Below, piece by piece: positions 2,725 to 11,876 of a DNA stretch of 30,524 nucleotides. The stretch's first letter is position 1, and every line of letters begins with the position of its first letter. The stretch covers positions 1-30,524 of the forward strand of contig JAQVDW010000022.1 of the NCBI GenBank assembly GCA_028698185.1, in the 5' to 3' direction. Both the position numbers and the translations under genes were made by a program. The notes under the pieces were generated by a model that worked only from the letters and a program-made list of their open reading frames with translations, did no database searches and was not told the DNA's origin. The stretch is from Erysipelotrichaceae bacterium (lineage in GTDB: Bacteria; Bacillota_I; Bacilli_A; Erysipelotrichales; Coprobacillaceae).

Positions 2725-3789
2725 ATGGGTAAAGTACAAAACATTACAAGAGAATCATGGATACTAAGCACGTTTCCTGAATGGGGAAGCTGGTTGAATG
2801 AAGAAATCGATGAAGAGGTAGTCAAACCGAATACGATTGCGATGTGGTGGTTGGGGTGTGTCGGCCTTTGGTTGAAATCGCCTGAAGGCTGCAACATCTC
2901 GGTTGACTTGTGGGCCGGCAGCGGTAAACAGACAAAGAAAAACAAGCTGATGGCAGCCGGTCATCAGATGGCCAACATGTGCGGAGGCCGCAAGCTCCAA
3001 CCGAACCTGAGAAATTCAGTTTCAGTAATCGATCCGTTCAAAATCACCCAACTTGATGCGGTGCTGGCAACTCACTATCATCACGATCATATGGATCCAA
3101 ACCTCTGCGCGGCAGTGCTTCAAAACCTTGATGAAAGCATCCCGTTCATCGGTCCAAAATATGCGGTTCGCGACTGGATCTCTTGGGGTGTGCCTGAAGA
3201 ACGTTGCCAGATCGTCAAACCTGGTGATGTGATCAAAATCAAGGACATCGAAATCGTGGTTCTTGAATCATTCGACCGGACATGTCTGGTGACAACTGAT
3301 GGGGTTCAGGATATACGCGACACTTGTCCTAACGACATGGATGAAAAAGCGGTCAACTTCCTGTTCAAGACTCCTGGAGGAAACATCTACCATTCAGGAG
3401 ACAGCCACTACTCGATCTACTATGCCAAACATGGCAAAGACCACAAGATCGACGTGGCGTTCGGCTCTTACGGGGAAAACCCGGTCGGTCTTCAAGACAA
3501 GATGACTTCGGTCGATATCCTCAGAATGGCTGAAGCGTTGAAATGCGAAGTAGTCGTGCCGATCCACTGGGATATCTGGACCAACATGACGCCTGACCTG
3601 TACGAGATCGAGTTGCTCTACAATTTCAAGAAGCCACGCAACCAATATAAGTTCAAGCCGTTCTTCTGGCAAGTCGGTGGCAAATATGTCTATCCAACCG
3701 ACAAGGAAATAACTCACTTCCACTTCGACCGCGGTTTCGATGACTGCTTCGATGAAGAACCGAACGTGCCTTTCACATCAATATTATAG
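2725..3789 (+). CDS. ulaG: L-ascorbate-6-phosphate lactonase (metallo-beta-lactamase fold)
   Basis: N-terminus ..[22 protein letters not shown].., HYHHDHMD metal motif and C-terminal ..GFDDCF..PF.S.L are near-colinear with E. coli UlaG as I recall it. AGGAGA RBS. Confidence 0.93.
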
Positions 3790-3798
3790 GGGAATATT

Positions 3799-4254
3799 AT
3801 GTTAAAAGAATTTGTCGAACAAAATCATTATAAATTCATTGAAAAAGCCGACACCTGGCAGGACGCCATCCGGCTTAGCTGTCAGGCTCTTGAAGCCGAC
3901 GGCACAATCGACGAGCGCTACGCCCAGTCGATAATCGAATGTGTCAACGAATATGGGCCATACATCGTCATCATCCCGGATGTGGCGATGCCCCATTCGA
4001 CCCAGGGAGCGGTCGGTGTCACTCGAAGCGCCATCAGCTTCATGAAGGTCGAACAGCCGGTTGCCTTTGATGAAAACGACAGGGAAAAAGATGCGGTGTT
4101 GTTTTTCACCTTGGCGGCGCTAGATCCCGACCAACATCTGGAAAACATGCAGAAACTCGTTGAACTTCTGTCGGATGATGATGTGGTTGAAGCTTTGAAA
4201 AAGGCGAAAAGCCCTGAAGATTTATTGGAAATCCAAGCAAAATACATAGACTAA
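3799..4254 (+). CDS. ulaC: PTS ascorbate-family EIIA component
   Basis: 151 aa with ..TWQDAI.. and the phosphorylatable-His context AMPHS typical of PTS_EIIA_2/UlaC. Lies inside the operon. Confidence 0.85.
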   Translation: MLKEFVEQNHYKFIEKADTWQDAIRLSCQALEADGTIDERYAQSIIECVNEYGPYIVIIPDVAMPHSTQGAVGVTRSAISFMKVEQPVAFDENDREKDAVLFFTLAALDPDQHLENMQKLVELLSDDDVVEALKKAKSPEDLLEIQAKYID

Positions 4255-4273
4255 TACTAGGGAGAAAATTGAA

Positions 4274-10106: not shown

Positions 10107-10116
10107 GGAGAGCTTA

Positions 10117-10941
10117 ATGAATAATAATGACTTGAAAATAGCGGCCAACCAGATCCGCCAGTCGATCGTCCAGATGGTCCACTGCGCGAGTTCCGGACAT
10201 CCCGGCGGATCGCTGTCGGCGGCCGACATACTCACATACCTTTATTTTGTCGAAATGAACATCGACCCGAAAAATCCGAAAATGGAAGAAAGAGACCGGT
10301 TCGTCCTGTCAAAGGGCCATGTAACTCCGGCTTACTATTCGACCTTAGCCCAGCGCGGTTACTTTGATATTGCCGAACTTGAAACATTCAGAAAAGTCAA
10401 CAGCCGTCTTCAGGGTCATCCGGCGATGCAGTACATCGAAGGGATCGACATGTCATCGGGGTCGCTTGGCCAAGGCCTTTCGACCGCGGTGGGAATGGCC
10501 AAGGCCTTCAAGATGGATGGCAAAGAGAACCGGGTCTATGCCCTTTGTGGTGACGGGGAACTTCAGGAAGGTCAGATCTGGGAGGCGGCAATGTTCGCCG
10601 GTTCCAACCTGCTTGACAACCTGACGGTCATCGTCGACAACAACAATCTCCAGATTGACGGTTCGATTGAAGAGGTCAACTCGCCATATCCGATCGACAA
10701 GAAATTCGAGGCCTTCAATTTCAACGTGATCGTGATCGACGGCCACAATTTCGATGCGATCGCCGAAGCCTTCAAACAGGCCCGTCAAACCAAATGTATG
10801 CCAACCGCCATCATCGCCAAGACGATCAAAGGCAAGGGCGTATCTTTCATGGAGGACAATGTGGCATGGCATGGCAGCGCGCCAAATGCCGCCCAATGTC
10901 AGCAGGCCCTGGCCGATCTTAAGAAAGTTGAGGTGGAATGA
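10117..10941 (+). CDS. Transketolase, N-terminal (TPP-binding) subunit
   Basis: The internal ATG at 10117, after AAGGAG, gives MNNNDLKIAANQIRQSIVQMVHCASSGHPGGSLSAADIL.. (split-transketolase N subunit, GDG..EG TPP motif). The ORF-track start at 10024 overlaps ulaF and is unlikely. Confidence 0.9.
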   Translation: MNNNDLKIAANQIRQSIVQMVHCASSGHPGGSLSAADILTYLYFVEMNIDPKNPKMEERDRFVLSKGHVTPAYYSTLAQRGYFDIAELETFRKVNSRLQGHPAMQYIEGIDMSSGSLGQGLSTAVGMAKAFKMDGKENRVYALCGDGELQEGQIWEAAMFAGSNLLDNLTVIVDNNNLQIDGSIEEVNSPYPIDKKFEAFNFNVIVIDGHNFDAIAEAFKQARQTKCMPTAIIAKTIKGKGVSFMEDNVAWHGSAPNAAQCQQALADLKKVEVE

Positions 10942-10943
10942 CG

Positions 10944-11876
10944 ATGGCTGAAAAAATAGCGACAAGAATATCCTACGGTGAGACTCTGGTCGAACTGGGG
11001 AAAATCCATGACGACCTGGTTGTCCTCGATGCCGATCTGGCAGCGGCCACCAAGACCGACATGTTCAAAAAAGCGTTCCCGGATCGGTTCATCGATGTGG
11101 GAATCGCCGAATGCAATCTGATGGGTATCGCTGCGGGAATGAGCACCTGTGGCAAGGTTCCTTTCTGTTCGACCTTCGCGATGTTTGCATCGGGACGGGC
11201 GTTCGAGCAGGTCCGCAACACAATCGGATACCCCCACCTGAATGTGAAAATCGGGGCGACCCATGCCGGGATCACCGTCGGTGAAGACGGGGCATCCCAT
11301 CAGTGCAACGAGGACCTTGCCTTGATGAGCACGATTCCAGGAATGACAGTCATCGTTCCAAGTGACGATATCGAAGCCCGGGCGGCAGTAAAAGCGGCCT
11401 ACGAGACTTATGGTCCGATGTATCTCCGTTTCGGCCGGGCCCCGGTGGATATCATCAACGATTTCGAAGGCTACAAGTTCGAAATCGGCAAAGGTGTCAG
11501 ACTCAAAGAAGGAAAAGACATCACCATCATCGCGACCGGAATCTGCGTTGGCAATTCCCTGGAAGCGGCCAAGATGCTTGAAAATGATGGCATCAGTGTC
11601 GAAGTCATCAATATCCATACGATCAAACCGCTTGATACAAACATCATAATCGAATCGGCCAAAAAGACAAACCGCGTCTTCACGGTCGAAGAACATTCGG
11701 TGATCAACGGTCTTGGTTCTCAAGTTGCCAGCACCCTGGCTGAAAATTATCCGGTCAAGGTGACCAAACTGGGGATGTACGATCTCTTCGGGCAGTCGGG
11801 ACCGGCCAATGAGCTTCTGGTCAAATACCAGCTTGATCCGACCGGAATCTACAACCAGATCAAAGAAAAACTATAA
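10944..11876 (+). CDS. Transketolase, C-terminal (pyrimidine-binding) subunit
   Basis: MAEKIATR.SYGE.LVELG......VVLDADL..ATKT..F...FP.RFIDVGIAE.N..G.AAG is the typical split-transketolase C subunit. GAGGTGG lies 7 nt before ATG 10944; ATG 10938 is also possible. Confidence 0.9.
   Translation: MAEKIATRISYGETLVELGKIHDDLVVLDADLAAATKTDMFKKAFPDRFIDVGIAECNLMGIAAGMSTCGKVPFCSTFAMFASGRAFEQVRNTIGYPHLNVKIGATHAGITVGEDGASHQCNEDLALMSTIPGMTVIVPSDDIEARAAVKAAYETYGPMYLRFGRAPVDIINDFEGYKFEIGKGVRLKEGKDITIIATGICVGNSLEAAKMLENDGISVEVINIHTIKPLDTNIIIESAKKTNRVFTVEEHSVINGLGSQVASTLAENYPVKVTKLGMYDLFGQSGPANELLVKYQLDPTGIYNQIKEKL

Follow-up and report, generated by a model that had tools for sequence, protein, structure and literature searches.

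Organization of the operon

The DNA analyzed here is a 30,524-nucleotide stretch from an Erysipelotrichaceae bacterium (GenBank assembly GCA_028698185.1, contig JAQVDW010000022.1, positions 1 to 30,524), which is referred to as the window. Eleven tightly packed open reading frames (ORFs) of the plus strand fill positions 2725-11876 in the order ulaG, EIIA, EIIC, fsa, EIIB, deoR, PROP, ulaE, ulaF, tktN and tktC, where PROP is the name used for the otherwise unassigned gene at 7520-8560 and for its family. Ten of the eleven ORFs are assigned by Pfam and NCBIfam, and these cover the L-ascorbate utilization (Ula) route with the exception of the decarboxylase UlaD. PROP, predicted to be a beta-propeller, is the candidate considered here for the missing step. 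The features of the operon are:

2363-2385, plus strand: terminator-like hairpin (10-bp stem with 6 G-C pairs, then a T run)
2624-2652, plus strand: weak sigma-70-like promoter candidate (TTGAAC, 17 nt, TATGAT; 9 of 12 consensus positions)
2725-3789, plus strand: ulaG, L-ascorbate-6-phosphate lactonase (NF008688, 612 bits, cut-off 306)
3799-4254, plus strand: phosphotransferase system (PTS) EIIA, UlaC-like (PF00359, EIIA_2, E = 4.5e-31)
4274-5752, plus strand: PTS EIIC of the SgaT/UlaA family, EIIC-GAT (PF03611, E = 2.4e-100)
5756-6409, plus strand: fsa, FSA/TalC-type fructose-6-phosphate aldolase or transaldolase (TIGR00875, 312 bits, cut-off 246)
6425-6715, plus strand: PTS EIIB, UlaB-like (PF02302, E = 3.7e-15)
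6744-7523, plus strand: DeoR-family regulator (HTH_DeoR and DeoRC domains), overlapping PROP by 4 nt
7520-8560, plus strand: PROP, predicted beta-propeller of 346 aa (no Pfam, NCBIfam or PDB sequence match)
8557-9423, plus strand: ulaE, L-ribulose-5-phosphate 3-epimerase, which acts on L-xylulose-5-phosphate (NF009689, 350 bits, cut-off 200); overlaps PROP by 4 nt
9417-10106, plus strand: ulaF/araD, L-ribulose-5-phosphate 4-epimerase (NF006047, 387 bits, cut-off 257)
10117-10941, plus strand: tktN, transketolase N-terminal subunit (PF00456, E = 9e-60)
10938-11876, plus strand: tktC, transketolase C-terminal subunit (PF02779 and PF02780)
11916-11950, plus strand: intrinsic terminator at the operon end (14-bp stem with 7 G-C pairs, T-rich tail)

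An earlier interpretation made from the DNA and its ORFs (the sequence-only reading) had described a packed eleven-gene operon of the ascorbate type that encodes every step but UlaD, and both parts of this description hold. The ORFs are separated by gaps of 9, 19, 3, 15, 28 and 10 nt or overlap by 4, 4, 7 and 4 nt, and a purine-rich, Shine-Dalgarno-like stretch lies within 20 nt upstream of most of the genes; ulaE, the start of which overlaps the end of PROP, is without one. UlaG, UlaE and UlaF pass curated cut-offs and are 62% (over 354 aa), 45% and 60.5% identical, respectively, to the E. coli enzymes. The three PTS components all match their general families, as expected of a SgaT/UlaA-type EIIC with EIIB and EIIA. 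At the level of the ascorbate-specific NCBIfam models, EIIC is close to the limit (NF006919, 383 bits, cut-off 380), EIIA has ascorbate IIA as its top match but falls under the cut-off, and EIIB is likewise below it. The gene at 5756-6409 fits the FSA/TalC model and not the classical transaldolase models. The regulator scores 80 bits against the UlaR equivalog model (cut-off 244) and, on this basis, is assigned to the DeoR family but not as an UlaR equivalog. The start of tktN is placed at 10117, not at the ORF start of 10024, based on a ribosome-binding site and a 274-aa orthologue in a related locus (L003).

The transcription unit is bounded by two hairpins. The hairpin at 2363-2385 ends the upstream gene and forms the 5' boundary, while the terminator at 11916-11950, proposed earlier as a strong one, outranks every other terminator-like site in the region. 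The single promoter of the sequence-only reading fares less well: a match does exist at 2624-2652, but at only 9 of 12 positions, and such matches are common in the region (21 observed versus 11.2 expected). Taken alone, the candidate promoter is weak evidence for the operon start.

Absence of UlaD from the operon

The missing ulaD, to which the sequence-only reading drew attention, is confirmed by three types of search. tblastn with E. coli UlaD yields no match to the window below E = 0.32; a UlaD/SgbH profile, built from four sequences (E. coli UlaD, E. coli SgbH and two Lactobacillaceae UlaD) and run without heuristic filters, finds nothing below E = 0.09 among 4402 ORFs of at least 70 aa from the window and 83 related loci; and PF00215, the family of UlaD, is not found in Pfam scans of the large ORFs of the window. 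In a positive control, the E. coli UlaD query recovers Firmicute UlaD (~50% identity) and the 3-hexulose-6-phosphate synthases HxlA (25-34% identity); thus, the search is sensitive enough. A divergent UlaD hidden in the window is ruled out by these searches, which likewise leave no support for the suggestion that one of its ORFs might encode a divergent decarboxylase of the orotidine monophosphate (OMP) decarboxylase fold. Among the best 120 matches of the UlaD profile, those that bear names are all from Bacilli or E. coli and none are from Clostridia, a bias that is no more than suggestive.

Other candidates for the decarboxylase are also set aside. UlaF is present in a single copy and scores 387 bits as AraD versus 53 bits as OtnC, which argues against a double role as a class II aldolase-type decarboxylase like OtnC. 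The CMD-family gene at 27978-28679 is 16 kb distant and in an unrelated context. A PF00215 gene near the PROP gene of Marvinbryantia, the only PF00215 gene seen near any PROP gene, is a type-2 PyrF (TIGR02127, 260 bits) and not a UlaD.

PROP is predicted to be a seven-bladed beta-propeller

PROP has no match in Pfam or NCBIfam at normal thresholds and no relative in the PDB by sequence, whether searched as a single sequence or as a family profile. Residues 211-243 give sub-threshold matches to FG-GAP (PF01839, 18.5 bits, gathering threshold 22.1) and VCBS (PF13517, 16.7 bits, threshold 26.9). A single DxDxDG calcium-binding motif (D226-L-D-N-D-G231) resides in the A-B loop between strands 221-225 and 234-239, and such motifs in A-B loops are a mark of VCBS propeller relatives (PMC8023676). 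The N-terminus, read directly from the sequence, has no hydrophobic signal-like stretch, which points to a protein that is probably cytoplasmic.

The AlphaFold2 model of PROP, generated from a 35-sequence alignment, is all-beta (predicted local distance difference test score, pLDDT, 93.4; predicted TM-score, pTM, 0.92) and has 28 strands in seven groups of four, as fits seven four-stranded blades. From this model, PROP is confidently predicted to be a seven-bladed beta-propeller. The all-beta model, with no (beta/alpha)8 barrel, and the lack of a PF00215 match also set PROP apart from the OMP decarboxylase suprafamily. The best Foldseek matches of the model are seven-bladed propellers, including LGI1 EPTP (query TM-score, TMq, 0.71), with generic WD40 proteins after them. 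The highest TMq (0.75) of the 50 matches listed belongs to the propeller domain of aldos-2-ulose dehydratase (4a7k), the only one of these named as an enzyme; its substrate is a keto-sugar. No lactonases are among the top 50 matches, and PROP has no Pfam match to SGL (PF08450) or Lactonase (PF10282) even at E values up to 10.

Among family members of 24-56% identity, the invariant residues of PROP are Y15, E33, G57, M59, F77, P107, H110, R111, W138, H175, G195, H242, G243, H270, R288 and Y342. The blades of the model are read as strands A to D, blade 7 being completed by the N-terminal strand, in a register deduced from the strand order rather than by coordinate analysis. Read in this way, the invariant residues would lie where the inner A strands begin or in the B-C loops, on one face of the central channel, and propeller enzymes usually bind substrate at that face. 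The four invariant His, one Glu and two Arg suggest binding sites for a metal and an anion, and the overall pattern of conservation looks like that of an enzyme.

Distribution and genomic context of PROP

The PROP family includes at least 1812 clusters at 90% identity, and a profile search recovers 972 clusters at 50% identity, of which 331 are at E <= 1e-30. Nearly all members are single-domain proteins of ~345 aa that are labelled 'hypothetical'. The only informative fusion is of a Cof-type HAD phosphatase to PROP (P0174), which does not point to a particular reaction. At least 583 species-representative genomes encode PROP. The 80 PROP genomes examined are mainly of Lachnospiraceae and other Clostridia, together with Erysipelotrichales, Peptostreptococcales and Negativicutes, and come mostly from gut samples. 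The closest genome to the window is a Coprobacillaceae metagenome-assembled genome (MAG; OY776328.1), with 88% identity and an identical eleven-gene order. A search of 72,556 plasmid records yields matches to ulaG and ulaD but none to PROP. A full-text literature search reveals nothing on the PROP family, on a propeller UlaD or on any other non-canonical UlaD; a 2011 survey of UlaG mentions merely 'rearrangements, insertions and losses'.

The genomic context of PROP was surveyed by calling ORFs in 80 PROP loci, with the window proteins and E. coli UlaD, SgbH and LyxK as queries; neighbors were counted in the 51 loci that extend at least 7 kb from PROP in both directions, and direct adjacency was counted in all 80. 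UlaG is found near PROP in 47 of the 51 loci, UlaE in 43, UlaF in 33 and all three in 32. A SgaT-type PTS is nearby in 36 of these loci, and a FGGY kinase without a PTS in nine. The neighborhood comparison proposed with the sequence-only reading thus returns a UlaD/SgbH-like gene in 0/51 loci. The direct neighbors of PROP are most often ulaE (61 loci), followed by deoR (26) and ulaF (25). The minimal operon is exemplified by Clostridium sp. JN-1 (ulaG-IIA-IIC-IIB-ulaE-PROP-ulaF-deoR), in which PROP is the sole gene without an assigned role in the pathway. The UlaG proteins that partner PROP are as close to E. coli UlaG (62%) as to each other, and E. coli UlaG nests among them in a non-bootstrapped neighbor-joining tree; on these sequence comparisons, they are true UlaG orthologues.

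The mid-operon deoR, coupled to the next gene, had been regarded as atypical. This is so in comparison to E. coli but not within the clade, where deoR directly precedes PROP in 26 of the 80 loci. The coupling of deoR to PROP is not functionally obligatory, as PROP is flanked by ulaE and ulaF in many other loci, where the regulator is located elsewhere or is of another family (LacI, GntR or SorC).

PROP and UlaD are mutually exclusive in the sampled loci

Four Firmicute ula clusters with gene orders that match those of PROP loci carry UlaD in the slot of PROP, and PROP is absent from all four. These clusters differ in transport, which is by a PTS, a permease with a kinase or an ABC transporter with a kinase. 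Aerococcus tenax has the order ulaG-IIA-IIC-IIB-ulaD-GNAT-ulaE-araD-HAD. Levilactobacillus brevis (L091) and a metagenomic locus (L095) have FGGY kinase-ulaG-ulaD-HAD-IIC, the PROP-type counterparts of which (L041 and L045) are ulaE-ulaG-FGGY-(IIC)-PROP-ulaF. The fourth cluster (L096) is ABC transporter-PfkB-ulaG-ulaD-ulaE-ulaF. PROP and UlaD exclude each other in every locus sampled, with no UlaD-like gene in more than 85 PROP loci.

Were PROP an accessory protein, its distant branches might be expected to accompany UlaD. Members of 25-38% identity were examined on this point; they are without UlaD and still reside beside UlaE-like and AraD genes. A relative of 38% identity (L094) is encoded after a deoR gene in the order ulaG-PROP-ulaF-ulaE-IIA-IIC-IIB. 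In Pelosinus propionicus (30%), PROP occurs with a true UlaG (546 bits), an MFS transporter, AraD (306 bits), a TIM-barrel epimerase and a split transketolase. At 25% identity (L098), the locus includes a LacI regulator, a TIM barrel gene overlapping PROP, a TRAP transporter and AraD (314 bits), a layout that mirrors E. coli yiaK-S with PROP at the position of SgbH. Thus, judged from gene order, PROP occupies the UlaD/SgbH slot in PTS and kinase-permease layouts (by comparison to Firmicute UlaD clusters) and in a TRAP layout (by comparison to yiaK-S), and in the MFS-linked locus is found together with UlaG, AraD and the TIM-barrel epimerase.

Two further features are common to PROP-type and UlaD-type clusters. 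HAD-family phosphatase genes recur in both (L020 12810-13628, L074 8220-9062 and L092 14544-15227); a phosphatase is required for ascorbate fermentation in Vibrio cholerae, according to a preprint (10.1101/2020.09.08.288738). In addition, a SgaT-type EIIC without EIIA or EIIB occurs beside a FGGY kinase in L045, L. brevis L091 and L095, which suggests that SgaT-family permeases may work with a kinase in place of the phosphotransferase relay.

Proposed role of PROP and alternative explanations

The operon is proposed, with a probability of roughly 0.65, to encode a complete PTS-dependent route of L-ascorbate fermentation in which UlaD is replaced by the non-homologous enzyme PROP. In this route, EIIABC would import and phosphorylate ascorbate, and UlaG would open the lactone to form 3-keto-L-gulonate-6-phosphate. 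The UlaG product has six carbons and UlaE and UlaF act on pentulose-5-phosphates; thus, a decarboxylation is required between them, and PROP is the only conserved gene of the pathway without an assignment. PROP is predicted to decarboxylate the beta-keto acid 3-keto-L-gulonate-6-phosphate to L-xylulose-5-phosphate, which UlaE and UlaF would epimerize to D-xylulose-5-phosphate for passage to central metabolism by the split transketolase and the FSA/TalC enzyme. A divalent metal may be held at the mouth of the central channel of the propeller by H110, H175, H242, H270 and E33, where it would stabilize the enediolate formed on loss of CO2, while R111 and R288 may bind the phosphate or carboxylate. 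Of the alternatives raised in the sequence-only reading, which had not singled out the gene at 7520-8560, a non-homologous decarboxylase is favored by the position of PROP in the UlaD slot, and a different substrate is weakened by the scores of UlaG, UlaE and UlaF and by the UlaG tree.

By extension, the PROP family is considered, on balance, a new enzyme family and the first of beta-propeller decarboxylases, metal-dependent and able to convert 3-keto-L-gulonate-6-phosphate (or, in distant members, related beta-keto sugar acids) to a pentulose. PROP would thereby have taken the place of the TIM-barrel UlaD/SgbH in Clostridia, Erysipelotrichales and Negativicutes, irrespective of uptake by PTS, kinase and permease, MFS or TRAP.

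Several observations weigh against this proposal. Four loci (L013, L046, L037 and L070) have ulaG-deoR-PROP but no ulaE or ulaF nearby. URO-D-like genes (PF01208) recur beside PROP (L013 6032-7066, L046 4497-5534, L089 and L097), being next to PROP in four PTS-type loci that are without ulaE and ulaF and in two distant loci (one of Spirochaetales, the other a JGI contig with hydantoinase genes), and the replacement of UlaD leaves them unexplained. Several distant members lie beside such genes with or without UlaG, and in Marvinbryantia PROP is accompanied by an ABC transporter and by a UlaG-like protein below the cut-off. Given these distant loci, with their URO-D-like genes, ABC transporter and divergent or missing UlaG, the wider family may be without a single function and act on several substrates. 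The putative metal site is drawn from residue conservation and the register of the secondary structure instead of from coordinates, and we know of no beta-propeller decarboxylase.

An unlikely, though serious, competing explanation is that a conventional UlaD is encoded elsewhere in the genome and that PROP has an accessory role in the same pathway, with a second lactonase (e.g., for dehydroascorbate-6-phosphate), a tautomerase that steers the enediol to the 3-keto form and a partner subunit of the UlaE-type TIM barrel as candidates. Translational coupling of PROP to the UlaE-like gene is frequent, distant loci included, some loci retain only ulaG-deoR-PROP, and the absence of UlaD applies to the sampled loci rather than to whole genomes, a point that also counts against the replacement of UlaD by PROP. 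Many sugar-acid beta-propellers are lactonases. By contrast, UlaD is in none of the more than 85 PROP loci yet inside every UlaD-type cluster sampled, and so complete a mutual exclusion makes an accessory role less likely; a lactonase function is further opposed by the Foldseek and Pfam results and by the presence of UlaG, which already covers the lactonase step. It is rather more doubtful that the substrate of the PTS is another, related lactone or sugar acid, with PROP catalyzing a reaction other than decarboxylation (a dehydration or isomerization like that of aldos-2-ulose dehydratase) in a route distinct from the classical ascorbate pathway. The borderline score of EIIC, the sub-cut-off scores of EIIA and EIIB, the dehydratase/isomerase that ranks as the top enzyme among the Foldseek matches and the clearly different clusters of distant members (with URO-D-like genes, hydantoinase and an ABC transporter) are in line with this view. 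It is at odds with UlaG, UlaE and UlaF, which are above curated cut-offs and 45-62% identical to the E. coli enzymes, with the one carbon that must go between the UlaG product and the pentulose-5-phosphate of UlaE and UlaF, and with the AraD-type epimerases that are kept even in the distant TRAP and MFS loci.

A non-enzymatic role for PROP, whether in scaffolding, in ligand sensing or as a partner to the DeoR regulator, is very improbable. Most of the top structural matches are propellers of protein interaction (LGI1 and WD40 proteins), and the 4-nt overlap of deoR and PROP in the window, together with the frequent placement of deoR directly before PROP, would fit a regulatory partner. However, PROP is often between ulaE and ulaF, away from a regulator or with one of the LacI, GntR or SorC families; the invariant His, Glu and Arg residues appear clustered at the starts of inner strands, as is typical of a catalytic site; and one step of the pathway would otherwise be left unfilled. 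The replacement of UlaD by PROP remains the preferred explanation.

Other features of the window

Upstream of the operon, the window has two adjacent paralogous genes for low-molecular-weight phosphatase/ArsC-like proteins (PF01451; 1194-1664 and 1872-2342); a related MAG has one of the two at the equivalent place. Just downstream of the operon, positions 12026-17999 are occupied by a second sugar-related cluster:

12026-12787: DeoR regulator
12977-15418: pyruvate formate-lyase (PFL)-like glycyl radical enzyme
about 15430-16109: FSA/TalC-like gene
16187-17083, minus strand: radical S-adenosylmethionine (SAM) activase
17316-17999: second FSA/TalC-like gene

In combining a glycyl radical enzyme with FSA, this cluster resembles the E. 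coli pflD/pflC-fsaB and ybiW-fsaA neighborhoods. In OY776328.1, tktC and the DeoR-glycyl radical enzyme cluster are separated by a gene that encodes a 1755-aa SpaA/collagen-binding surface protein (L003/L005, 14626-19893); this gene is absent from the corresponding interval of the window (11950-12026).

Farther downstream, long ORFs overlap on opposite strands at 18723-19625 (minus) and 18810-19601 (plus). Only the plus-strand ORF has a family match (Asp/Glu racemase, PF01177), and the 300-aa ORF on the minus strand is therefore unlikely to be a gene. A 294-aa protein with a prepilin-type N-terminal methylation motif (PF07963) is encoded at 20976-21860 on the minus strand, and the related MAG has a similar gene ahead of its operon (L003, 2267-3370).

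Comparison to known systems and significance

The Ula system of E. coli (ulaG, ulaR and ulaABCDEF), used for anaerobic growth on L-ascorbate, shares with the window operon a SgaT-type EIIC with EIIB and EIIA, UlaG (62%), UlaE (45%), UlaF (60%), a DeoR-family regulator and D-xylulose-5-phosphate as the end product. Unlike the E. coli system, the window operon is one transcription unit with the regulator inside, adds a split transketolase and an FSA/TalC gene, and is without UlaD, in the place of which is the beta-propeller gene. UlaD/SgbH and PROP are alike in the proposed reaction and in operon position next to ulaG or ulaE. The two have no sequence similarity, UlaD/SgbH being a 216-aa (beta/alpha)8 barrel and PROP a 346-aa protein predicted as an all-beta seven-bladed propeller, with conserved residues that are rich in His and Arg, unlike those of UlaD/SgbH. 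The role of Mg2+ in UlaD parallels that proposed for the PROP metal in stabilizing the enediolate.

Aldos-2-ulose dehydratase of Phanerochaete chrysosporium (N-terminal domain of 4a7k) resembles PROP as a seven-bladed propeller of the VCBS/FG-GAP type in an enzyme of keto-sugars, and reportedly works through a metal-bound enol intermediate (Claesson et al. 2012). By contrast, the sequence identity to PROP is 10%, and the enzyme, a fungal protein with three domains and 879 residues, catalyzes dehydration and isomerization, not decarboxylation. Its propeller has been placed in the VCBS group (PMC8023676).

The yiaK-S system of E. coli (lyxK-sgbH-sgbU-sgbE with the TRAP transporter YiaMNO; 2,3-diketo-L-gulonate) is similar to the PROP loci that use a FGGY kinase or a TRAP transporter and not a PTS, and these loci retain UlaE-like and AraD genes with PROP at the place of SgbH. 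Unlike yiaK-S, the kinase-type PROP loci usually retain ulaG, and no YiaK-type reductase is seen in PROP loci.

The Ula pathway itself belongs to textbook knowledge, and the novelty would lie in the enzyme for one of its steps. If the proposal is correct, a chemically simple reaction has been solved by an unrelated fold, in a clean non-orthologous gene displacement, and to our knowledge such a catalytic role is so far undescribed for beta-propellers. Were PROP the decarboxylase, a function would also be provided for 972 clusters (at 50% identity) that are labelled 'hypothetical'. Pathway reconstructions that require UlaD would score the Ula route as incomplete in PROP genomes, and, on this proposal, current annotation pipelines would miss the fermentation of vitamin C in many of the gut Firmicutes that carry PROP. 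Ascorbate fermentation would then be predicted for many more gut Firmicutes than UlaD-based annotation implies.

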